Below, piece by piece: positions 14,496 to 54,620 of a DNA stretch of 64,000 nt. Location: IMG/VR virus record IMGVR_UViG_3300027963_000039; one strand, written 5' to 3'. The first letter of the stretch is position 1. The number at the start of each line of letters is the position of its first letter. A model generated the notes under the pieces. The model saw only the letters and a program-made list of their open reading frames with translations, searched no databases and was not told the origin of the DNA. Both the position numbers and the translations under genes were made by a program. The DNA comes from a virus.

Positions 14496-14690
14496 GTGAC
14501 GAAGTTTGTCGGTAAATTCCGTAAACAAAAAGATTACAACGATGATTACGAATTTAGTAGGAATGCGTTGAATAACCGTAAACGCAAAGGTGTGAACACC
14601 GAAGTTAAAAAACTATTAAAAATGTATGAAGAAGAAGAATTCATGTATGGATCTTCATACGACACAAAATCCAAAAAAAGAAGCCATTAG
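14496..14690 (+). CDS. Small basic hypothetical protein
   Basis: GTG start with AGGAG RBS. Confidence 0.6.
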   Translation: MTKFVGKFRKQKDYNDDYEFSRNALNNRKRKGVNTEVKKLLKMYEEEEFMYGSSYDTKSKKRSH

Positions 14691-14702
14691 CGCAAAAAAA
14701 TG

Positions 14703-14734
14703 ACGCACCAGGATCAACGGTGGTGCGTTTTTTT
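14703..14734 (+). terminator. Rho-independent terminator
   Basis: ACGCACCA/TGGTGCGT stem followed by a T tract. Confidence 0.75.
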
Positions 14735-14766
14735 CAACTGGTCAATAGGCCGATATGGTACAAATT

Positions 14767-14828
14767 TGTTGTTTTTTAGCAACAAATACCAAAATCTGCT
14801 TGACAAAGCCCGAAATGTGTGTCATAAT
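14767..14828 (+). promoter_or_regulatory. Early promoter with upstream TGTTG-N8-CAACA operator
   Basis: Palindrome 14767-14784; TTGACA 14800; 17-bp spacer; CATAAT 14823. Confidence 0.8.
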
Positions 14829-14855
14829 GATATCTCTTGACTGGAGAATCAAAAT

Positions 14856-15242
14856 ATGATTGTTTATGGACACATTCAAAAATCCAAAAAACGTAAAGTT
14901 CCAAAAGCTGTTAAAAAACAGCATGATGAGTGGTTGGCTTCTGTTATGAACATGTCTACCAACTTTTCAAAAACTAAGCCTAAAGCAAATTCTAAAGTAA
15001 TTCCTTCACCTAGTACGTTTGTACGCCGTGAAACGCCTCATTATCCGTCTTTGGATACAGGATACACAGGAACACTAACGAAAGTTGGAATTATGAAGGA
15101 TTATCACAAAATGTCAAAGGAAGAAAGAGCGAAAATTGATGAAATTAACGCTTGTGTAGCGCCTTTACATAAAAGTAATTATGTTTATGTTTCTCCTGGT
15201 ATGAATCCTGCCGGTTTTGGCAGAAAAAATGAAATTCTTTGA
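14856..15242 (+). CDS. Basic hypothetical early protein
   Basis: ORF directly after the promoter; APLHKSNY motif. Confidence 0.7.
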   Translation: MIVYGHIQKSKKRKVPKAVKKQHDEWLASVMNMSTNFSKTKPKANSKVIPSPSTFVRRETPHYPSLDTGYTGTLTKVGIMKDYHKMSKEERAKIDEINACVAPLHKSNYVYVSPGMNPAGFGRKNEIL

Positions 15243-28223: not shown

Positions 28224-29000
28224 TTATGAGTAGAATGTCTGAATTGTATATGGAAATTTGTGAATTGTCTAATCAGGGATACAAACCTACCAGTATTGCT
28301 ACTATGCTGGGTTTGCCATTAGATACCGTTAATAACGTTCTGTTTGATGATGTAGAAGAGCCGTATGAACCGGAAGATTACCGATACTATGATGGTGAGT
28401 AAATCAGTCAGTCTTTACATTTTAAGTAAATGATTGTTTTTTGGATAATTGTTGGAATTTTTGTTTTTGAATTTGTTTTAGGATTCATTGTTACCCTATG
28501 TATTAGAAAATGGGGAATTTATGGTCGTCATTAATTTGTTAAGGAATTGGATATGATTACAATAGATGGTTTGACCAAAGCACAAACTAAATTGCTCGAT
28601 ACAATGTGGAGTATCGATGGTTATGATGATTATTTGAAATGGAAATCGGAACTTTCCGAATCCAAACAATTAGAAGTAGAATTGTTGGAAGAAATGTTGA
28701 TGTTGGCCGATATAGATGATATTGAAGATGTTTCTCAAGCTCGAAACATACTTGCAAATTTTTAAGGAATGAAAATGAAAGTATCAGAATTAATTGAATT
28801 ACTACAGGACATGAATGAAGAAGCAGAAGTGCATTTTTCATACAATTACGGTGATCATTGGCGGACAAAAGTATCACCTTCAGTAGATGAAGTCTATGAT
28901 GGTTATATTGAGTATTCTGATTACCATCGAATGTATAAACTGATTGATGAATATAGTGATGATGTAGGCGATGCACGTAAAGTGGTCGTTTTAAGTTAAT

Positions 29001-29210
29001 ATGAACGAACGAATTAAACAACTTGCTGAACAGGCTGGTTTGAATGATGCTTATATGAATTTTGACCATAAATACTTCGCCCAGTTGATTGTGCGAGAAT
29101 GTTTAGGCATTGTACACGATGCTGAACGAGGTGGTAGTAATGAAATATGGGACAATGCCGTGAAGTTTATTAGACGAGATTTACAAGAACATTTTGGAGT
29201 TGAAGAATGA
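29001..29210 (+). CDS. MNERI...FGVEE mini-gene, copy 1
   Basis: Shares three conserved blocks with copies 2-4. Confidence 0.8.
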   Translation: MNERIKQLAEQAGLNDAYMNFDHKYFAQLIVRECLGIVHDAERGGSNEIWDNAVKFIRRDLQEHFGVEE

Positions 29211-29425
29211 ACGAACGAATTCGAGAACTTGCTGAACTGTCTGGTCTTGCGTTTGAGAAGTTCGCCCAGTTGATTGTTCAGGAATGCATGAATCAAGTAA
29301 GAGAACAATATCTGCCCGTGCTAAAAGATGAACTTATGATGAAGGACACGCATTGGAAGGGTTATGTCCAGTGCGGGGTTGATAGTTATGTAGCGATTAA
29401 AGAACATTTCGGAGTTGAAGAATGA
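29207..29425 (+). CDS. MNERI...FGVEE mini-gene, copy 2
   Basis: Same three blocks; ATGA overlap with copy 1. Confidence 0.8.
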   Translation: MNERIRELAELSGLAFEKFAQLIVQECMNQVREQYLPVLKDELMMKDTHWKGYVQCGVDSYVAIKEHFGVEE

Positions 29426-29574
29426 CTATTAATAGTGATGTCAAACAAAAACAAAAAGAAGCCAATCGTTTGTATGAAAAAAAATGGCAACGTCAACAGA
29501 CCATCGAAGTAATCAAAGGACTAGTATTTTTAGTAATTTTTATGGGTGCTATTGTGGTGCTGTCTTTGTTATAA
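29422..29574 (+). CDS. Small protein with C-terminal TM (50 aa)
   Basis: Manual ORF started by the ATG in the 3' block of copy 2. Confidence 0.55.
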   Translation: MTINSDVKQKQKEANRLYEKKWQRQQTIEVIKGLVFLVIFMGAIVVLSLL

Positions 29575-30739
29575 GGATTGAAGAATGATTGACTATACAC
29601 CGGACAAATGGATCATGATTAAATTAACCAATCAAGAAAACGAATCACACTATAGGATTTTTGCTTGTTGGTATGGTGGTTATCTTGGTAGTGATAGTTG
29701 GCGGATGAATTCTGGTGTTACCGAAGTATCCGAAGATGAACAAGGATATCATTTTAAAGGGTCATCTGGTTCGGTGTATTATTGTAATAAACGTATGTAT
29801 GGAACTAGTGGATATGGCCAATCAGTATTAATTGATATGATTGAAAAAAGCAAAGAAAAAGTTATAATGAAAATTATGCCAGAAGATGTTAATTTTATGG
29901 AGTTAGATTATGGGAACTAATTATTACGTTGCAAAGAACAAGTGTGATTGCTGTAAGCGAGTTGATCATGAGTATCATATCGGCAAATCATCATATGGCT
30001 GGGCATTTTCATTTCAGGGTTATAAATGGAATAAACTCACTTCATGGAAACAATGGAAAGAGTTTCTGAAAAGTCAGCAGATTATCGATGAATATGGTGA
30101 TGATATCTCATATGAAGAATTTGTTAATATGGTTGAGACATATAAAGCTCCAGGTTTTGTCCGTGAAGATGGTCATGTCAATCTTCAGCACAACAACTAT
30201 GTGCGTGAGAACAGCAGATTTCCTTCTGACTACAATCCTGAATATAACTGGAACGATGATGACGGGTATTCTTTTACTACTCATGAATTTTCATAATATT
30301 AATGGAATACATAGAAGGTGTGGACACTTGTAATAATTACATTAATAAACGGTGGTAAATCTCCACCAAAAATACAGGAACTACCATATAAAACAAAACA
30401 AGAATGCCTTGTTTCGAAAAGAAAAATGGAAGTTTCTGGAACTATCTTTGGTTACTGTGAACAAAGAAATGGAGAAAAAAAATGAGCAACGAACAAGATA
30501 AATTTAAACACTCTAAAAGATTATATCGTGACGAAACAGCAATCGCAAAACAAACTAGGATTGCCAAAGAATATGGAATCGATGTAAGAGAGCCAAATCG
30601 TTTTAATAAACATCATCCAACAAACTGCGGCAATCCAAAATGTGTAATGTGTGCAAATCCCCGAAAAGTATTTAAAGAAAAAACAGTCAAAGAAAAGTCG
30701 TTTGAGCAAAAAGGTTTAATTCCACCTTGGGAATGTTGA

Positions 30740-30800
30740 TGTTGTTTTAAAACAACAAACTTAAAATACTGCTTGACTATCTCCATTGGTATGATACAAT
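30740..30800 (+). promoter_or_regulatory. Early promoter with TGTTG-N8-CAACA operator
   Basis: Palindrome 30740-30757; TTGACT 30773; TGA-TACAAT 30795. Confidence 0.8.
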
Positions 30801-30829
30801 GGTATCTTTAAATCGATGGAGAAGTCATC

Positions 30830-31219
30830 ATGGAAATTCTTAAAGAAGTTACTGTTTGGGATTCTGAATTTCAACCCAACCACACATATTTGCTTTCTGG
30901 CAAAGGCAATATTATTGCGTATGCAAAAAATCACGGAGATGAAGTGTTTGTATCACCGTCAGGTAAAATCACACTTAATAAAAGTCGCCGTAAATTCATA
31001 ACATCTAAACATACTGGTTTGTTGAAAGTTATGAAATCTGTCTCCAAACCAATACATACCAATCCACAATGGAGTATTCTCTCCGATTCTGGTAAGACTT
31101 ATACCGTAGAACTGGATAACGGTAAATACACCTGTAGCTGTCCTGGTCATACCTATCGTGGAAAATGCAAGCATACCGAACTTGTTGCGAAAAAACAACA
31201 AGAAGGAAATAATGCTTGA
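30830..31219 (+). CDS. SWIM zinc-finger protein
   Basis: YTCSCPG...KCKH motif. Confidence 0.75.
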   Translation: MEILKEVTVWDSEFQPNHTYLLSGKGNIIAYAKNHGDEVFVSPSGKITLNKSRRKFITSKHTGLLKVMKSVSKPIHTNPQWSILSDSGKTYTVELDNGKYTCSCPGHTYRGKCKHTELVAKKQQEGNNA

Positions 31220-31243
31220 CTTTTGCCGTGGTACCTGTACAAT
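31183..31243 (+). promoter_or_regulatory. Early promoter with TGTTG-N8-CAACA operator
   Basis: Palindrome 31183-31200; TTGACT 31216; TACAAT 31238. Confidence 0.8.
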
Positions 31244-31628
31244 TACATACATCTTAACTTAAAGAGTAAACTATGAAATTGCCTTTTGATTGCACCGTTA
31301 TTGACAAAGAACCTCAATACATTACCAACCCATTTTCTGGTGAAGGTTGTATGTTGTCTCCTGAAGCAGTTGCTGTGTATGATACAATGCGTGGTTGTGA
31401 AATGTTTGGTGATTACAAAACTTTGCGTAAAGGCCTCGATTGGTTTCGTAAATACTTTCCTCAAGAATATATGATTTTATTGGATTAACATGGAAAAATC
31501 TACTAGAAAAAAAACTAGAGCGCATTATGTTCTTTTTTGTATGAATACACCCTACAAACCAAAACAAGTGCAATCTAAAATTGCTTACAATCGAAAAGAT
31601 AAACACAAATTGAAAGAAAGTTTAAATC

Positions 31629-32789
31629 ATGAATAAAAATGCAAAATCATTTATTGTTGCAGCTGAAACGATTTTTGGTAAAAATTCACTTTTGACCCGT
31701 GACGGCATTGATGAAGTTTGCAAAGAATCAGGCGCACCTTATCCATATTGGCTTGTAACAAAAACAGAATACCGAGCAGGCCGTGGCATGTATCGTGTTC
31801 CAGATTCCGGTGAAAATATTAAACAAGTGAAACAAAGTGAAACTCAACATGAAAGCGAAGAAATGCAAACAGAAGTAGCCTATGCTCAAGTCGTACAACT
31901 ACGACAACCAAAACTCATTGACGAATCTGATTCTGCTATTCCAGAAAAATATCCAGATTATGTTCCTTTTGGTTTCTTTAAAGAACTAAAAACTATCATT
32001 AGTTCAAATCGTTTTTATCCAGTCTTTGTTACTGGACTTTCGGGTAACGGCAAAACCTTGATGGTCGAACAAGTGTGTGCCGAGTTGCAACGTGAATGTA
32101 TCCGTGTGAATATTTCCATCGAAACTGATGAAACTGACCTGCTTGGTGGTCCTACACTAGTTAACGGTAACGTAGTTAATCGTGATGGTCCTGTTCTCCA
32201 AGCAATGAAGCGTGGTGCTGTACTGTTGATTGACGAAGTTGATCGTGGATCAAACAAACTTATGTGTTTGCAAGGTATCATGGAAGGCAAACCGCACTAC
32301 AACAAAAAATCTGGTGAAATGGTTTTTCCTAAGAAAGGATTTACCGTAATTGCAACAGCAAACACCAAAGGTCGTGGTTCAGATGAAGGTAAGTACCTTT
32401 CACAAATTCTTGATGATGCTTTTCTAGAACGTTTCCCAATTACTGTCGAACAGGAATATCCTGATGCTAAGACAGAAAAGAAAATTCTGAAACCCCTGAT
32501 CAAAGATGAAGATTTTGTGGAAAACTTAATCCAATGGGCTGATGTTGTTCGTAAATCATATCAAGAAGGTGCTACTGATGAAATTATTTCAACACGCCGT
32601 CTTGTACACATTGCTACTGCCTTTGAAATTTTCAAAGATCGCATGAAAGCAATTACATTATGTGTCAATCGTTTTGATGAAGAAACGAAAATGGCATTTC
32701 TAGATTTGTATTCCAAAGTAGATGCTTCCGTTGCATCGCCAGCGAATACAAGTACCACTACCGTTAGCACGGAAGAAACACCGTTCTAA
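31629..32789 (+). CDS. CobS/MoxR-like AAA+ ATPase
   Basis: GLSGNGKT, LLIDEVD, ATANTKG, FLERF and STRRL motifs. Confidence 0.9.
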   Translation: MNKNAKSFIVAAETIFGKNSLLTRDGIDEVCKESGAPYPYWLVTKTEYRAGRGMYRVPDSGENIKQVKQSETQHESEEMQTEVAYAQVVQLRQPKLIDESDSAIPEKYPDYVPFGFFKELKTIISSNRFYPVFVTGLSGNGKTLMVEQVCAELQRECIRVNISIETDETDLLGGPTLVNGNVVNRDGPVLQAMKRGAVLLIDEVDRGSNKLMCLQGIMEGKPHYNKKSGEMVFPKKGFTVIATANTKGRGSDEGKYLSQILDDAFLERFPITVEQEYPDAKTEKKILKPLIKDEDFVENLIQWADVVRKSYQEGATDEIISTRRLVHIATAFEIFKDRMKAITLCVNRFDEETKMAFLDLYSKVDASVASPANTSTTTVSTEETPF

Positions 32790-32900
32790 TACTAGTGGTA
32801 AACAACCGAATGGGGCTTGCCAACCTAGTTTCATTCGTGTATAATGGTACTGTAGCCGTATTATGCTATATTATGTTTAATTTGAATAGGAAATATTAAA

Positions 32901-33230
32901 ATGAGTTTGACAATTCGCAAAGGTAAAGTTAATCGTCACGAAAAAATCACACAGGTAATGCTTACAGGCAAACCAGTGTCTCCAGAAGAAATCAAAACCG
33001 TATTTGAGGGCACCGACCAAGAAGCAGTTTTGTATCGCCTCTCCACAAATATCTATAACATCCGTAAAGATGGTGGTATTGTAAAAGTTATCAAGAATGG
33101 TCGCAAAGTTCAGGCTTACCAATTGGTTAACTTTGATCAGTTTGATGCTAATGGTCGTTTCAAAGGCACAGTTAAAACTGCACCAGTTGTTGTTGCAACT
33201 GAAAAAGTTGAAGCTGCTGCAGAAGTTTAA
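32901..33230 (+). CDS. Putative winged-helix DNA-binding protein
   Basis: VSPEEI...RLSTNIYNIRKDG...YQL resembles a wHTH; own promoter (TTGCCA at 32817, downstream TATAAT). Confidence 0.55.
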   Translation: MSLTIRKGKVNRHEKITQVMLTGKPVSPEEIKTVFEGTDQEAVLYRLSTNIYNIRKDGGIVKVIKNGRKVQAYQLVNFDQFDANGRFKGTVKTAPVVVATEKVEAAAEV

Positions 33231-34076
33231 TTAATTCAAAATGAAAAAGATTGTAATTAATGCCTGCCATGGTGGTTTTGGTTTATCTGAATTGGCTATT
33301 GAAAAGTACAAGAAGTTAACCAATAACACCAATCCATATTTTCATGACCTTACGATTCCCCGTGATTGTTTTCTATTAATCAAATTAGTAGAAGAACTCG
33401 GTGAAGATGTTAACAACAGATTTTCCAATTTAAAAATTGTGGAAATTCCCGATGATGTTGATTGGGAAATTGCTGAGTATGATGGTTTCGAATGGGTCGC
33501 TGAGATGCATAGAACTTGGAGTTGGCATGAACCAGAAGCTAATTGATTTGGTCCGAAAACTGAAAGATCATGAAACAAGGATGAACCAATATTTGGATTC
33601 TATTCCTTCAGATTTGAATTCAGTATTTTTTGATAATGTTTACGTAAACAATCTAGCAATGCAGCGTGATGCGTTAATCGAGGAATTATTCGGTGATATG
33701 GCCGAAGATGTCTATTGGTTTCTGTATGAGTTTGAAGCAGGAAAATCTACTGGTCCACATTTGATACTCGCTGACGGTACTAAGTACACATTTGTTACCG
33801 ATGAATCTTATTATGAATATTTAAAAAGTCTATGGATCTAATGAACGAACAAAAAACTCAACGAGGTTTATCTATAGATAATATTGCAACAGATCCAGTT
33901 AGAATGAGAAAACGATGCGAATCATTAGTTGTTGCCATGGTGGGTAAAGAGTTAGAACAACAATGGTGGAACGGTCCAAACAAGGCATTCTGTGGTGATA
34001 CACCAGAACAGATGTATAGTGTTGCACCTTCAGTAGTGTATGCTTATCTGATGAAATCAGCAGAAGGAGAATGGTA

Positions 34077-34286
34077 ATGAACGAACGAATTGTTGAATTG
34101 ATTAAACAATCCGGTACCGATGTTTCTGGTAAGTGGATGAGTATGTATCAGGTAGAAAAGTTCGCCGAGTTGATTGTGCGGGAATGTGCCGACTTTGTTC
34201 GTGAATATCCTGAAAAGTATTTGACTCACAATCAAGCCAATGAGATTGGTTTTGGAATGGAAGAACATTTCGGAGTTGAAGAATGA
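34077..34286 (+). CDS. MNERI...FGVEE mini-gene, copy 3
   Basis: Three conserved blocks. Confidence 0.8.
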   Translation: MNERIVELIKQSGTDVSGKWMSMYQVEKFAELIVRECADFVREYPEKYLTHNQANEIGFGMEEHFGVEE

Positions 34287-34477
34287 ACGAACAACAATAC
34301 CCAGGTCTAAAAAGGCTTGAAAACGGTGATATTGAATATCAAGACCATATTTGGTGGAGTGAAGAATACTTCAAAGCGGGTAAGAATCCAATTGGTGTAA
34401 ACTTTGATGATCCTGTGAATTGTCGGTTTACTTTTGACATCGATGGTAATCTAAAGAATGTGGAATTTATAAAATAA
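34283..34477 (+). CDS. Hypothetical protein flanked by two copies of the GGAGTTGAA block
   Basis: Starts in the 3' block of copy 3; an orphan block follows at 34483-34501. Confidence 0.65.
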   Translation: MNEQQYPGLKRLENGDIEYQDHIWWSEEYFKAGKNPIGVNFDDPVNCRFTFDIDGNLKNVEFIK

Positions 34478-34502
34478 TCAATAAACATTTTGGAGTTGAA
34501 CT

Positions 34503-34706
34503 ATGAACGAACGAATTCGACAACTGGTTAGACAGGCTGGACTAGATGATGCTGACTTTCCTATTGAGAATTGGGATAATGTTCCCTTAGCAAATTTTGC
34601 CCAGTTGATTGTGAGGGAATGTGCTCTTACTGCTGGGTTAATGGAGCAAGAAGGTCGCAAAGGCATTGGCGCACAAATATTAGATAATTTCGGAGTTGAA
34701 GAATGA
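34503..34706 (+). CDS. MNERI...FGVEE mini-gene, copy 4
   Basis: Three conserved blocks. Confidence 0.8.
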   Translation: MNERIRQLVRQAGLDDADFPIENWDNVPLANFAQLIVRECALTAGLMEQEGRKGIGAQILDNFGVEE

Positions 34707-35222
34707 ATAAATGGGCTGAAATGAAAGATAGATTTGATTTTGAACAGGCTTTGCTTGAGTGTTGGAAAATTACCGATGAAATTGGTTTACTCAACAAAAA
34801 TGTTTTAGAAGGAAAAATTGGCGGAGACGAAATGTCTCAAGATGAAATTTCCAACTTTCTGTTGGGGCTGGAAACCATCTATGAACACAAATTTGATGTT
34901 TTGTGGAATGGATTCGAAACAGTAATTATGAATATTGTTAGAGAAAATTCAATTCTTAAAGAAGAAGTTTCAGCTCTCCGTACACAATTGGTAGAAATTC
35001 AAAAAGGCGAAAAATGAAATATATTGCAAAACCTCGGATGTCCAATAGTCTAGGAATGAAAGAATTCGACAACCAACTTGACGCGGTGATGTACTTAAAC
35101 AGCGTATTGAGTGCGAAGGATGGCGATGGGGAGCGATTTGATTACACCTACGTAGTACCGTCAGCATCTCCTAAGAACCTGCGTAGGACAGTCGAGGAAT
35201 ACGTCTGGATAGGCAAATTAAT

Positions 35223-36369: not shown

Positions 36370-36605
36370 TCGATGATGAAAAGCTGCTGAGCTTGGTTAC
36401 AGAAATTGATGAATTTATTATGCACGCTTGCGTTAAAGAGAATTTACCTCCACTAAACGTAACGGCAATTATATTGGCACGTTTAATTTCTTTAAACAAA
36501 AGATTTGGCCATGCCGAAGAAATGGTTAAATTGCTAGAAGAAGTTTGTAGTAAAATAGAAACCCGTGAAATTGACATGGATGAATGTAAGGTGATACATT
36601 AGTAT

Positions 36606-36666
36606 TGTTGTTAATTTACAACACTTTAAATTATTTGCTTGACATTATTGTTGGTTGTGATATAAT
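36606..36666 (+). promoter_or_regulatory. Early promoter with TGTTG-N8-CAACA operator
   Basis: Palindrome 36606-36623; TTGACA 36639; TGA-TATAAT 36661. Confidence 0.85.
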
Positions 36667-39220: not shown

Positions 39221-39405
39221 AAGAAGGATATTCTGACATAGAACTTGAGCTCGAAAAAGAGTTGTTGTTTGATTTGATGTTTTTGGCTCATGAACGTGAC
39301 ATAACATTGAATCAATTAGTTGAAAATATTTTACGTGAATACCTTGAAAAAAATAAAGGTATTTCAACATGGGAAAATTGGAAAATGAATAAGGATATAA
39401 CATGA
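39217..39405 (+). CDS. Ribbon-helix-helix-like small protein
   Basis: AHERDITLNQLVENIL pattern. Confidence 0.55.
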   Translation: MKEGYSDIELELEKELLFDLMFLAHERDITLNQLVENILREYLEKNKGISTWENWKMNKDIT

Positions 39406-40352
39406 AAATTAAATTGTTAGTTATTTCGTTGATGATTGGTTTAACATCGGCTCATGCTCAAGAATGGCCCCAAAAACAGGTAAAAGTTATAGTTGGCGGC
39501 ACACCTGGAAGTACAGCTGATCTTTGGACTCGAACTATTTTTGATCAAGTTTCGAAACAAACAGGTAAAAATATAGTTGTGGAAAATCGAGGTGGTGCAG
39601 CTGGAACTATTGCTGGAAATGCGATTGTAAAATCTGAACCAGATGGACACACTCTTTTTGTCAATACCATCACACATACAGTTGCTCCTCTAATACAAAA
39701 ATCAGTACGGTATAATGTTGAAACAGATTTTACCAATATTTGCGGACTAGTCACGCAACCTTTTGTTCTGACTGCAAGTGTACGTTGGAAAAATATTGAT
39801 GAATTTGTCAAATATGGTAAAGAAAATCCTGGCAAATTAAACTGGGCTTCTCCTGGTTTAGGAAGTTCTGGTCACTTGTTGATGGAAAAATTTTCTTATG
39901 CTACAAATATTAAAATGGTACACATTCCTTATCGTGGTTCACCCGAAGCTTTGACAGATATTTTATCTGGCCAAGTAGACATTTTTCCATCAACTATCGG
40001 ACACTCCTTATCTGTGGTAAAAGAGGGCCATGCAAACAATCTTGTTGTCACATCACCAAAACGATCCCCAATCACACCAGATGTACCTACTTTAAATGAA
40101 TCAGGAATTAAAAATTCAAATTACATTTATTGGCTTGGTTTGTTTGGTCCAGCAAAAATTAATCCTATTATAGTTGAAAATATCAACTTAGAGGTTCAGC
40201 GAGCTATGTCGTCATCCGAAGTTAAATCAAAATTAAATGAATTGGGATATGAACCAATTAAAATGTCTCCATCAGAATTTGATACTTTTGTTAGGAATGA
40301 AATTAAACAACATAAAGAAATTATATCTCGTTCTAAAATGACAATGGAGTAA
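39402..40352 (+). CDS. Tripartite tricarboxylate transporter substrate-binding protein (Bug/TctC)
   Basis: Signal peptide; VENRGGAAGTI, PDGHTL, HIPYRG and PDVPT motifs. Confidence 0.9.
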   Translation: MKIKLLVISLMIGLTSAHAQEWPQKQVKVIVGGTPGSTADLWTRTIFDQVSKQTGKNIVVENRGGAAGTIAGNAIVKSEPDGHTLFVNTITHTVAPLIQKSVRYNVETDFTNICGLVTQPFVLTASVRWKNIDEFVKYGKENPGKLNWASPGLGSSGHLLMEKFSYATNIKMVHIPYRGSPEALTDILSGQVDIFPSTIGHSLSVVKEGHANNLVVTSPKRSPITPDVPTLNESGIKNSNYIYWLGLFGPAKINPIIVENINLEVQRAMSSSEVKSKLNELGYEPIKMSPSEFDTFVRNEIKQHKEIISRSKMTME

Positions 40353-45282: not shown

Positions 45283-45289
45283 TTGGCTG

Positions 45290-45318
45290 TTGACAAAATA
45301 TAAATAATCCTGTATACT
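45290..45318 (+). promoter_or_regulatory. sigma70 promoter with an embedded T4 late box, upstream of tmRNA
   Basis: TTGACA, 17-bp spacer, TATACT; TATAAATA at 45299-45306. Confidence 0.85.
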
Positions 45319-45324
45319 TAATAG

Positions 45325-45630
45325 GTATACAAGTTATTGCTGTATGAAGCAAAGAGAAAAGTGTTCTGGACGGGGGTGCGAATCCCCCCAGGTCCACCAA
45401 TTATCTATTTTTATCCTAAACGGATAATTATCTGGATTAAATAAAATTGGATAATTGATGGGCCTGCATAGTTTCGACAGGGCAAAGAGTAACAGAGTGG
45501 ACAGCACGACAGCGATAGTCGTAAAAACTAAACAAAAGTAAACGCAAACGACTCACAGTTCGCATTAGCAGCCTAAACGCCGCTTAGGGTTTTTGGTAGT
45601 TTATCCTCGTAACAGAATTAAACTGCCTAA
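45325..45630 (+). ncRNA. ssrA: Circularly permuted (two-piece) tmRNA; outer boundaries approximate
   Basis: Acceptor piece with T-arm and CAGGTCCACCA ending 45399; intervening segment; 5' piece GGGCCTG from 45460 (G3:U70 pair); tag ANDSQFALAA* at 45544-45576. Confidence 0.93.
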
Positions 45631-51264: not shown

Positions 51265-52740
51265 TTAAACGATTCTCGTACTTGCAAGTAACATCTTTTG
51301 AAAAGATGGTTCCATATTTCTTACAGCAGGTAAATATTTTTTCGGTGGTACTGGACCACCATCACTATTGACTGTTGTATTTTTAACACTAGTAACAGGA
51401 TCGGATCTAGATTGGGGTAAATTTAAATCTACATTTTGTGAATTGACCGCATTTAGTTTTGATCCTAGATTAGGAGTTTCCATTGGTTCTGCTTTTGCAG
51501 CAGGACTGCCATTGAGTTGATTTGAAGATTCTGTGCCACCTGAAGCCATCGGTGCAGCAGGTGTTGCTGGTGCAGGTGTTGCTGGTGCAGGTGTTGCTGG
51601 TGATTCGGTTGTTCCTTGTGGTATAGGTGTAGCTGTTTTTCTAGTACCATCTTCATTATAATTTTCGCCGTATCTCTGGTCCCAAGCAGATGCTCGCACA
51701 CCATGGGCAAGTTTGCTTCCACCTGTTCCTGGCTTTCCTGCAATAAAATCGGCCTTTGATGGAACATTTTCTTTTAGTCCTAAATCGGCATCACTTCTTT
51801 GTGGTGGAATTTCATATACCTTTTCATCATCAGCAATCTTTTGAACCTTTTCTCTACCACCCATTTCCAACAAAAGCTTTTCCTTGGCATCACCTTCTTC
51901 CATGGCTAAAGCTTCTTTAGCTAGTTGGCGACCATTCTTAATAATATCTTCTAGTTTTTCACGGCCGCCCAATTTTTCAATATCTCGGGCACTTCCATTT
52001 TGTAAAATTGCCTGTGCTTCATCAGGACTTAAAGCTTTCATATTAGCCGTGTTTTCAGCTAACTTTTTTAGTCCAAAAGACATTAAAGCAATAAGAGCAA
52101 CCATAGAAGTTGCACCTAATAACGCAAGACCTACCGGACTTGCAAACCAACGTAACACACTCATCAAAGTTTTTGCTACATTAACACCACCAAGTAAATC
52201 CGCCAAAGAAAAACCATCTTCACTTTTTAATTTTACTGCTGTTGCTTTACCTGAATATGGTTTACCGGTAATCGCTTCAATTAATTCTTTGTGTCTTTTT
52301 AATTTCTCAATATCATTTTCTTCTTTATAATTATTTTGTTTTTCTCTACGCTTCCTTTCATCATCAAGTGATTTTTTCATTAACACATAGATTTTTTCTA
52401 GTGTCTTAGAGAAACCGCCAGTTGATTGTAATTGAGGAATTCTAGTTGATCTTTCTCCCATTGCCGAAGCTCGACCACCTCTTTTAACACCTGAAAAGAA
52501 ATCAATTGATTCACGGCTTCTTCCTGTAGCTTTACCCAGCATAGCAGGAGCCCAATTACTACCAAATGTAAGAAACTTGGCAATATTCATTGGATCAAAT
52601 GTTTGCTTGATGCGTGTTGCTCTGGCTTTTGATTTTAAAGAAATAGTCTTTCTAAGTGACGAAAAGGCACCACCCTCTTGTTCAGCAAGAAGTGTGCCAA
52701 AAGATTTGTTTCTTATGTTTTGTGCTTGTCTGTAGTCCAT
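51265..52740 (-). CDS. Tape-measure/baseplate-hub-like protein, paralog B
   Basis: N-terminus shared with the upstream gene; hydrophobic segment; Pro/Ala-rich tail; tail-module position. Confidence 0.55.
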   Translation of the reverse strand: MDYRQAQNIRNKSFGTLLAEQEGGAFSSLRKTISLKSKARATRIKQTFDPMNIAKFLTFGSNWAPAMLGKATGRSRESIDFFSGVKRGGRASAMGERSTRIPQLQSTGGFSKTLEKIYVLMKKSLDDERKRREKQNNYKEENDIEKLKRHKELIEAITGKPYSGKATAVKLKSEDGFSLADLLGGVNVAKTLMSVLRWFASPVGLALLGATSMVALIALMSFGLKKLAENTANMKALSPDEAQAILQNGSARDIEKLGGREKLEDIIKNGRQLAKEALAMEEGDAKEKLLLEMGGREKVQKIADDEKVYEIPPQRSDADLGLKENVPSKADFIAGKPGTGGSKLAHGVRASAWDQRYGENYNEDGTRKTATPIPQGTTESPATPAPATPAPATPAAPMASGGTESSNQLNGSPAAKAEPMETPNLGSKLNAVNSQNVDLNLPQSRSDPVTSVKNTTVNSDGGPVPPKKYLPAVRNMEPSFQKMLLASTRIV

Positions 52741-54620
52741 TATTTCTTATCAGCCTTTTTAACTGGAGCAGGTCTATCATCTGGCCTTGTTGATCCTGAT
52801 GGTGGCATTTGATTAGACTGATTAACCGTTGTGTTGTTTACATTTGTTGGTGTTGGAGTATCTTTATTTAACTCATTTCGCATTTGAGTATTTTGTTGAG
52901 AGGATTTATCAATTTGTGAACCTGTACTAGAATCAGCTGGAACCATTTGAGCACTCAAATCTTCTTTTTGATATTTTTCCGCCAATACCGCACGATCCTT
53001 TGCCTTTTTACCTGTAGGATCAGAAAAACCAACGGCTGTATTTACTAATGAAATATCTTCAAGTCTTCCTGGATCACCTTTAGTTAGTTTTGATTTATAA
53101 TTTAAAAAGAACCAAGGTATAGATTTTGCAGCGATTTCAGGAGAATTAAGTAAATCTGGATTCGAAACTAAATCTATTTTAAGATAATCACCTAAAGCTT
53201 TGTAAGCATTTTTTCCTGTGATTTGTAAAAAACCTCGACCTCTATATTTCCATCCGTCACCTGGTTCAGAATTTCCGTCAGTCTTTGCATATACATGATT
53301 GGCTAATTTTTCACTTCTGTCGTCTCCTTCTTTTGAAACAAATTGTTGAGCAAATTCTAGTGTAGGTATTCTATTTTTATTGAAAGTATTTTGTATTCCC
53401 TCTGGAGTTCTATAAAACAAACTTTCATTTTTAGGAACAAAATTTGATTCCGATTCTACTTGAGCTAACACATTTGCTTGTGCTTTAGCAGATAACCCTG
53501 CGGCCACCAAAGCTGCAATAACCGCACCTTTGCCTCCAGAAACGGGAGGAATTTTTAGTGCTTTTTGTGCTGGTGGTTTTGTTGTGACTGATTTTGGTGC
53601 AGCGGGTGCAGGTTGTGCTGGGGCTTGTTGAGCGGGTGGTTGTGTTTGTTGTTTAGGTGCAGGTTGCGCTGTAGGTTGTTGCTGTTGAGCACTTTCAGCT
53701 TCTTTTTTCTGTCTAGTTGCTGTTTCTTTAGCTTCTCTATCAGCCTTATCTCTAGCATCTTTAGCTTCTCTATCAGCTTTGTCTTTGGCTTGTTTACTCT
53801 CTCTGTCAGCTTTATCTTTTGCGTCTTTAGCTTCTTTGTCAGCTTTGTCTTTGGCTTCTTTTTGTGATTTATCTTTGGCTTCTCTATCAGCCTTATCTTT
53901 GGCTTCTCTATCAGCCTTATCTTTAGCAGCTTTATCTTTAGCTTCTCTATCAGCCTTATCTTTAGCAGCTTTATCTGTTTGTTGCTTTTGTGCTGGTTTT
54001 TCAGCAGGTTTTTCAGCAGGTTTTTGTGTTGCTGGTTTTTCAGCAGGTTTTTGTGCTGCTGGTTTTTCAGCAGGTTTTGACGGCTCGCCAGGTTTTTTAG
54101 GTTCTTCTATTTTCTTAGGACGACCAACTTTTTTTGGCACACGTTTAAGAGTGAGTGCCTTTAATATTTGTTCGTGTCTTTTTTGTTCAACTTTATTTTC
54201 ACGTTTATTTTCTTTATCGTCCTCTTTGTTCCATTTGGCTATCTGTTTTTCACGTTCTTTAATAATTCTCTCAATGCCTTTAACAGACTCAATTATGGGA
54301 TTAACAGGTTTATTTTCAGAATCACCGTCTTGAACAGCAGCAGAACGACCAACACCGGAAGGTCTTGCACCAGTAAAATGTGCAATATCAGATTGTTTTC
54401 TTCCGGTCATTTTACCCATCATAGCAGGAGCCCAATTACTACCAAAAGTCATCTTTTTGGCAATATTCATTGGATCGAACGTTTCTTTTATACCCGTTAC
54501 GTTTGCTCGGGTTTTGGATGAAATTGCAGAACCTATAGACGAAAGTAAGCCACCCTCTTGTTCAGCCAAAAGAGAGCTAAATGATTTTTTTCTTATCTTA
54601 GCTGCTGAACGATAATCCAT
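52740..54620 (-). CDS. Tape-measure-like protein with GH19 lysozyme domain, paralog A
   Basis: ES.F, GDGWKYRGRGFLQITGK.Y and NPDLL motifs; charged low-complexity repeats. Confidence 0.75.
   Translation of the reverse strand: MDYRSAAKIRKKSFSSLLAEQEGGLLSSIGSAISSKTRANVTGIKETFDPMNIAKKMTFGSNWAPAMMGKMTGRKQSDIAHFTGARPSGVGRSAAVQDGDSENKPVNPIIESVKGIERIIKEREKQIAKWNKEDDKENKRENKVEQKRHEQILKALTLKRVPKKVGRPKKIEEPKKPGEPSKPAEKPAAQKPAEKPATQKPAEKPAEKPAQKQQTDKAAKDKADREAKDKAAKDKADREAKDKADREAKDKSQKEAKDKADKEAKDAKDKADRESKQAKDKADREAKDARDKADREAKETATRQKKEAESAQQQQPTAQPAPKQQTQPPAQQAPAQPAPAAPKSVTTKPPAQKALKIPPVSGGKGAVIAALVAAGLSAKAQANVLAQVESESNFVPKNESLFYRTPEGIQNTFNKNRIPTLEFAQQFVSKEGDDRSEKLANHVYAKTDGNSEPGDGWKYRGRGFLQITGKNAYKALGDYLKIDLVSNPDLLNSPEIAAKSIPWFFLNYKSKLTKGDPGRLEDISLVNTAVGFSDPTGKKAKDRAVLAEKYQKEDLSAQMVPADSSTGSQIDKSSQQNTQMRNELNKDTPTPTNVNNTTVNQSNQMPPSGSTRPDDRPAPVKKADKK
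53700..54080 (-). repeat. Coding tandem repeats (KAD.EAKD and KPAEKPA)
   Basis: Repeated gcttctctatcagccttatct and ggtttttcagca units on the + strand. Confidence 0.85.

Follow-up and report, generated by a model that had tools for sequence, protein, structure and literature searches.

The 64,000-nucleotide stretch of DNA analysed here (the window; IMG/VR virus record IMGVR_UViG_3300027963_000039) is part of a T4-like phage and carries, in two clusters, four small genes that are assembled from exchangeable halves. In each gene, frameworks A, B and C, which are conserved blocks of DNA, alternate with two modules, a (between A and B) and b (between B and C). The phenomenon is real: modules of a large family of unnamed proteins are shuffled by way of linkers, in a form not described before. 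The swaps, their location at the blocks, the preserved reading frame, the selection on the modules and the lack of a single cut were all obtained by sequence comparison. T4-type recombination during co-infection, at these coding linker patches, is the probable cause. The genes and blocks are arranged as follows.

29001..29210, + strand: family gene 1, 69 amino acids (aa), with A, a1, B, b1 and C
29207..29425, + strand: family gene 2, 72 aa, with A, a very short a2, B, b2 and C
34077..34286, + strand: family gene 3, 69 aa, with A, a3, B, b3 and C
34503..34706, + strand: family gene 4, 67 aa, with A, a4, B, b4 and C
29076..29102, + strand: block B crossover zone of gene 1 (FAQLIVREC), within which linkage to both flanking modules fades
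29261-29287, 34161-34187 and 34596-34622, + strand: equivalents of this block B in genes 2-4
29191..29221, + strand: C/A junction, HFGVEE-stop with GGAG and the overlapping ATG of the next gene
34487..34506, + strand: orphan non-coding block C, a remnant of an HFGVEL gene end and the ribosome site for gene 4

A scan of the 64 kilobases (kb) bore out the block positions given in an earlier note on this DNA. Block A is present as exact copies at 29001, 29207, 34077 and 34503, and block B at 29076, 29261, 34161 and 34596. The four coding copies of block C span 29191-29210, 29406-29425, 34267-34286 and 34687-34706. The fifth, orphan block C sits between a cargo open reading frame (ORF; 34283-34477) and gene 4. 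Apart from it, no further copy of A or C (20-mer) with up to two mismatches, or of B with up to three, was found on either strand of the window. The conserved zones exceed the blocks of the earlier note, comprising about 12 codons in A and about 10 in B (through its Cys codon). A core, GAGTTGA, can be read in both B and C. The proteins have MNERI, FA(E/Q)LIVxEC and FGVEE in common and are unalike elsewhere. The segments between the blocks had been described as unrelated; this holds among the four window genes, but every one of these segments is a conserved module with further occurrences in other phages. The start of gene 2 overlaps the stop of gene 1, and a second in-frame ATG of gene 3 is located at 34071.

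A sister phage (L222) is 96-99% identical to the window across most of 20 kb, and all four window genes have a different partner module in it. In cluster 1, the window has a1-b1 and a2-b2, and the sister has a4 joined to a new b, a1 joined to a new b, and a new a joined to b2. In cluster 2, the window has a3-b3, the cargo gene and a4-b4, and the sister has a3 with a new b alone. Every switch between the two phages falls inside a block. Identity stops at the Cys codon of B or at most two codons from it, begins at the Glu-Lys before this Cys, stops at the end of A, or resumes at C. Gene 3 equals its L222 counterpart up to the Cys codon of block B and is unrelated beyond it, where the following tract is replaced.

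34192..34678, + strand: replaced segment (b3, C, cargo, orphan C, A, a4, B, b4), with one different b module in L222

Between unchanged flanks, the sister has modules without a counterpart in the window; the genes that border the two clusters (28769, 29422, 33841 and 34703) keep their positions. Module a4 is shifted by 5 kb, being in cluster 1 of L222 and L341 and in cluster 2 of the window; it is found at 90-94% identity in other phages, and b4 is found with five other a modules. Module b2 is joined to different a modules in L222, L094 and L148. In a third strain (L341/L023), a1-b1 is retained and followed by a4, and the a1-b1 pairing was found again in another sample. In sequences from run X8, gene 1 is preceded by an insertion of the final 10 nucleotides (nt) of the orphan C. 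In a related species (L223, AAA ATPase 83% identical), the family genes are located elsewhere. Upstream of cluster 1, a 76-aa gene has approximately 30 substitutions relative to the sister at 28795-28943, between near-identical flanks; this patch may be a recombined tract adjoining the array.

The pairing of modules was also compared across phages. In a set of 455 genes, with types defined at 75% identity, 346 a types and 337 b types formed 445 combinations. More than one partner was found for 65 of the 69 repeated a types and 68 of the 71 repeated b types; whether the A-B and B-C segments assort independently was a test that the earlier note had proposed. The Chao1 estimate exceeds 1,000 modules in each pool. 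Among the best 120 homologs of gene 1, some 100 different a modules, a3 and a4 of the window among them, are paired with b1. Partner retention was examined in 507 genes from 250 contigs, after duplicate fetches of contigs had been removed. The partner was kept in 69 of 93 pairs with identical a, 3 of 25 at 95-99% identity, 4 of 32 at 90-95%, and none of 125 at 75-90%; the same classes of b gave 68 of 81, 5 of 36, 3 of 53 and 0 of 131. The partner thus persists in 74-84% of pairs whose module is identical and in about 6-14% of those at 90-99% identity, and in 0% of those under 90%; it is lost once the divergence of a module reaches about 5-10%. Window modules recur at 92-97% identity in loci that have no stretch of 250 nt or more in common with the window; therefore, the exchange crosses species. 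Block identity is 0.871 within contigs and 0.864 between contigs, and a module was duplicated within a contig in only 1 and 4 of 466 pairs. Because the two identities are equal and modules are hardly repeated, block uniformity is community-wide rather than intragenomic. Tandem duplication within one genome was considered as the source of the arrays and rejected, since modules are almost never repeated per contig.

Crossovers were mapped in 40 and 50 independent pairs that have only one module in common. To the left of B, linkage to a is 0.95; it is 0.76 at the edge of B and 0.40 and 0.14 in the two halves of B, and linkage to b is 0.17 and 0.30 inside B and 0.88 to its right. The interval for the first-half linkage is wide (0.14-0.62), and the crossover evidence is good, not final. 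Low linkage to both sides inside B fits many crossovers spread over the block rather than a fixed cut, and such spread would also homogenise the block. A fixed cut site in B was rejected because a single cut would tie each site to one side, however many events had taken place. The blocks thus act as recombination anchors that shuffle modules, as had been suggested: the switches relative to L222 lie in them, and linkage fades inside B. The idea of a dedicated cassette system has to be given up in favour of linker-guided homologous recombination, since no fixed cut was seen; the description 'integrase-free' in the earlier note holds for the long ORFs of the window. Two structural candidates were also dismissed. 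An RNA or DNA hairpin in block C folds no better than shuffled sequences (z about 0), and pairing of A (GAACTT) with B (AAGTTC) has folding at the shuffle level and no significant A-B covariation (p 0.08). A check for mini-circles, made on contigs, gave no circles or intermediates; it gave back-joints at blocks, which possibly come from other phages with the same blocks, and joints with short sides were left out of the evidence for this reason.

Block C has a second role. Among 605 copies of C, 182 lead into A and 400 into a different start codon, 378 of the latter at the same offset, and the non-family genes behind C belong to 225 families. These counts uphold the description of block C as a portable ribosome-site and start plug. 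The genes that it starts in the window, and a degenerate copy of it, are as follows.

34283..34477, + strand: cargo gene, unrelated, 64 aa, which opens with the first 10 nt of block A and lies between two C blocks
29422..29574, + strand: resident 50-aa gene, started by block C, kept in L222 and found behind C in two other phages
34703..35017, + strand: resident 104-aa gene, common in related T4-like phages and C-started in this lineage only
29575..29588, + strand: degenerate C-like plug GGATTGAAGAATGA, which precedes ORF 29585

Capture of genes by block C, as the earlier note supposed, applies to some of them. The cargo gene at 34283 is movable, bracketed by C/A junctions, and absent from L222; its homologs are free of blocks in L380-382 and lie between C and A in L384. 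The genes at 29422 and 34703, however, are fixed in the sister, and the L223 homolog of 34703 (77% identical) has no C upstream. These two are better read as residents in front of which the array changes, not as recent captures. Among the homologs of ORF 29585, the copy in L325 follows a full C and the others do not. Independent contigs, one of them across the cargo, cover C-cargo-C-A-a4 and B-b3-C without differences and with the same depth as the flanks. Two unrelated ORFs, 33841 and 19628, likewise open with the first 10 nt of block A, and a family gene comes after homologs of 33841 in three other loci. About 36 of 648 ORFs that open with A have neither B nor C, and they comprise unrelated bodies and collapsed peptides of 7-13 residues. 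In L359, L328 and L389, such collapsed family genes of 7-13 codons have A joined straight to C.

The blocks are constrained at synonymous sites. In 118 genes, from loci selected by protein only, codons that are rare in the background prevail in the blocks: CGA (86% versus 12%), GCC (85 versus 21), GAG (89 versus 26), TTG (90 versus 27) and GGA (92 versus 21). These codons are near-fixed in low-GC and high-GC carriers alike. The synonymous difference per shared residue is 0.19-0.21 in the blocks of genes with unrelated modules, where saturation would give 0.46-0.52, and it is 0.42 in AAA ATPase orthologs of 85% amino-acid identity. The claim of the earlier note that constraint acts at the DNA level is right as to the near-fixed synonymous sites, but the constraint is not on DNA alone, because the blocks encode a helical core and purifying selection acts on the modules. 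In every block, conservation is highest at second codon positions. The ratio of nonsynonymous to synonymous substitution (dN/dS) within modules is 0.11 and 0.12 among distinct sequences, and this purifying selection includes the loop module a. Distances between blocks are in frame in 565 of 566 cases for A-B and 526 of 533 for B-C; when the blocks were located by DNA alone, the distances were in frame and free of stops in 565 of 566 and 525 of 533, respectively.

The genes encode an unnamed family of acidic three-helix proteins of about 74 aa from uncultured freshwater phages, with 6,035 clusters at 50% identity in one profile search. The fetched loci yielded 456 distinct complete genes, whose products are 62-98 aa long with a median net charge of -6. 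The DNA pattern of the C/A junction has at least 120 matches in viral contigs, and that of B likewise at least 120. Searches of Pfam, PHROGs, PADLOC and PDB sequences with the family proteins gave no match, GenBank phage records gave no significant match, and a literature search of incomplete coverage gave no description of the family. In the AlphaFold2 model of the gene 1 product, helices span residues 3-11, 23-40 and 48-65, with a predicted local distance difference test (pLDDT) score of 85.5. Block A forms helix 1, B opens helix 2 and C closes helix 3; module a is a loop, and module b is the remainder of the helical hairpin. The hydrophobic pattern of the helices is kept in b modules beside both blocks. 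The best fold match in the PDB (Z 6.0, root-mean-square deviation 2.8 over 63 residues) is generic helical, and the structural neighbours among viral and atlas models are exclusively uncharacterised proteins of uncultured phages. A homodimer model of the gene 1 product scores 0.52, and the best control scores 0.00; of 30 solved pairs, 20 came up to this mark, as did 1 of 23 single chains. The runs agree in at least 90% of contacts, with pLDDT of at least 78, and the modelled interface consists of block residues and part of module b. This prediction supports self-binding of the gene 1 product. Family genes also occur on contigs filed under unrelated bacterial taxa, such as L397 (NZ_JBBAKG010000001.1). 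These scattered genome-bin matches are probably mis-binned phage DNA and were left out of the host assignment.

That phages evolve by exchanging modules at linkers has long been hypothesised, and clear cases are few. In the promoter-early stem-loop (PeSL) cassettes of T4-type phages, short repeats are recombination linkers by which small ORFs are added, deleted or replaced, with no integrase identified (PMC2839356, PMC4122927). The present arrays resemble them: in the variable early region of a T4-like phage, the places where genes are gained, lost or replaced between close relatives coincide with the repeats. However, PeSLs are intergenic, carry a promoter and a terminator, and move whole genes, whereas the present blocks are coding (the orphan C alone is intergenic), the mid-gene block swaps half-genes, and the regulatory cargo is a ribosome site and a start. 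No strong match to a sigma70-type promoter or a stem-loop terminator was found at the blocks (folding z about 0). In the gp38 adhesin of T-even phages, hypervariable segments lie between glycine-rich motifs, and exchanges occur in or near the conserved motifs (PMC3157838). The alternation of intragenic conserved motifs with variable segments is common to both systems. Unlike gp38, a single-copy virion adhesin, the present family is multi-copy, acidic and helical, with more than 300 module types per slot in a small sample; its terminal linkers also chain genes, it bears no similarity to gp38 and has no PHROG or Pfam match, its model is an all-helical 69-aa protein, and its locus is early rather than that of tail fibres. 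The arrays work like PeSL shuffling and have the design of gp38 adhesins, and they are a member of neither. Integron cassettes likewise form arrays of short ORFs in which units are gained, lost or rearranged at repeated boundaries, but here no integrase was found among the long ORFs scanned in the window, there is no hairpin signal and no fixed crossover, and sub-gene modules are exchanged. Diversity-generating retroelements also combine a constant scaffold with variable segments in phage proteins; here, however, the modules are old, length-variable alleles under purifying selection that are exchanged whole, and the window contains no template/variable repeat pair with adenine-specific changes.

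Other explanations must be weighed. The mosaics could be metagenome mis-joins at short shared repeats, as k=31 contigs break at the blocks, the blocks are common to many phages per sample with approximately tenfold summed depth, and b differs in 24 of the 93 pairs with identical a. Nevertheless, identical modules on separate contigs mostly keep their partner and the loss grades with divergence, the a1-b1 pair recurs in another sample, independent contigs across B-b3-C and C-cargo-C-A-a4 show no differences at flank depth, and L222 has modules absent from the window between unchanged flanks. Mis-joining is highly improbable as the source of the pattern. We consider it quite unlikely that a dedicated, integron-like site-specific recombinase, encoded elsewhere in the genome or by the host, moves the cassettes at the blocks. 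Inside B, both linkages are low where a fixed cut predicts one-sided linkage; the hairpin signal is absent (z about 0), A-B covariation has p 0.08, and the scan of long ORFs, which covered the 64-kb window only, revealed no integrase or reverse transcriptase. Such an enzyme would nevertheless suit the near-fixed synonymous sites in low- and high-GC phages, the short shared runs and the GAGTTGA core in B and C, and the window is only a part of the genome.

If the genes were ordinary paralogs, the blocks would be kept for protein or translation reasons alone, and mosaicism would be passive, with exchangeability unselected. The conservation of second codon positions in all blocks, the helices and modelled dimer interface that the blocks form, and the GGAG site, which explains part of C, are in line with this view. 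It leaves unexplained the fixed rare codons in A and B, the block synonymous divergence at half the core-gene level, and the loss of partners in the sister; we judge it unlikely. It differs from linker-guided shuffling chiefly on the selected role of the linkers, and homogenisation by frequent crossover alone could mimic the pattern. Little credence can be given to a selfish, self-spreading mini-gene array of little benefit to the phage, in which modules persist by folding and hitch-hiking: dN/dS is 0.11-0.12 in both modules, the frame is almost always kept, and no mobility enzyme was found among the long ORFs of the window, even though presence is patchy (a full gene nearby in 11 of 80 related AAA loci), positions differ in L223, and arrays insert ahead of resident genes.

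Linker-guided homologous recombination is therefore the reading that we develop here, with the enzyme and co-infection as its inferred parts. The frameworks would be at once the core of a three-helix protein and patches of 15-35 nt of DNA identity common to many freshwater phages. During co-infection, T4-type homologous recombination would cross over within these patches. A crossover in B would swap half-genes in frame, and one in the C/A junction would add, remove or move whole genes and cargo; the moved genes would stay translated because C carries a ribosome site and a start. Repeated crossover, together with selection for exchangeability, would make the patches uniform at synonymous sites across the community. 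Genes for a gp59-like helicase loader and a gp32-like single-strand binding protein are present in the window.

As to function, the proteins may be acidic scaffolds of the early phase that form dimers and use two variable loops to bind changing targets in the host or rival phages, in betaproteobacterial hosts; we give this somewhat less than an even chance. Heterodimers between paralogs would multiply the repertoire. More tentatively, and with considerable doubt, freshwater phages of different species might pool more than 1,000 a and more than 1,000 b modules via selected coding linkers as a community-wide library, with homo- and heterodimers forming a set of binders, comparable to antibodies, that are directed at defence or regulatory proteins of the host. 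Two features of the window point to a betaproteobacterial host, as judged from gene content.

45287-45630: two-piece (permuted) transfer-messenger RNA (tmRNA), betaproteobacterial (Rfam RF01850)
39402-40352: gene for a TctC/Bug solute-binding protein

Some points weigh against these proposals. Random genes have only short runs of exact identity across block B (median 14 nt, 95th percentile 24), and T4 recombination needs <50 bp of homology (Arbiol et al., PMC2839356). As the exact runs in B are shorter than the T4 patch size, a helper protein might take part, although we regard this as improbable. All data come from short-read assemblies; the independent contigs break at the blocks, and the phase across B is not read-supported. 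The host assignment draws on the beta-type tmRNA and the TctC gene.

The window otherwise has the gene content of a T4-like phage, encoding a primase, ribonucleotide reductase, thymidylate synthase, a DNA end protector, and baseplate and tail proteins. The runs that contain the stretch are mostly labelled as freshwater or lake metagenomes. The arrays are surrounded by consecutive small ORFs of the + strand, where sigma70-like promoter matches occur, and do not lie among the tail genes. Small ORFs on the same strand with sigma70-like promoters are the usual layout of the early variable region. In the same region, a palindrome, TGTTG-N8-CAACA, is found at 14767, 15788, 23487, 30734, 31183, 35223 and 36606, each time upstream of a CTTG(A/C)C -35 box (seven in all) and with constant spacing from it, and may be a PeSL-like or activator-site repeat. 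L222 has approximately 650 extra nt (its 14553-15206) at this palindrome-promoter repeat (window 36602-36606), hinting that the copy at 36606 may also be an insertion point. The TctC region (39500-40250) has approximately 75-90 mismatches per 250 nt relative to the sister, far above its flanks, suggesting a possible allele replacement. A protein of 626 aa encoded on the - strand (52740-54620) contains tandem repeats rich in Lys, Ala and Asp, with units of 33 nt and less, and has a partial duplication in common with the neighbouring 491-aa ORF.

Among instances of linker-guided exchange, the protein-coding linkers are what sets the present case apart. Exchange is visible both between strains that are 99% identical and between otherwise unrelated phages, and the distribution of crossovers is measurable. 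The family is among the larger unnamed protein families of lake phages and comprises two independently assorting modules under purifying selection. The mixing of these modules explains why databases list the genes as an unending series of singleton ORFans. Should the loops be binders, the arrays would provide diversification without hypermutation or an integrase, and each module would be a candidate determinant of host takeover or counter-defence.

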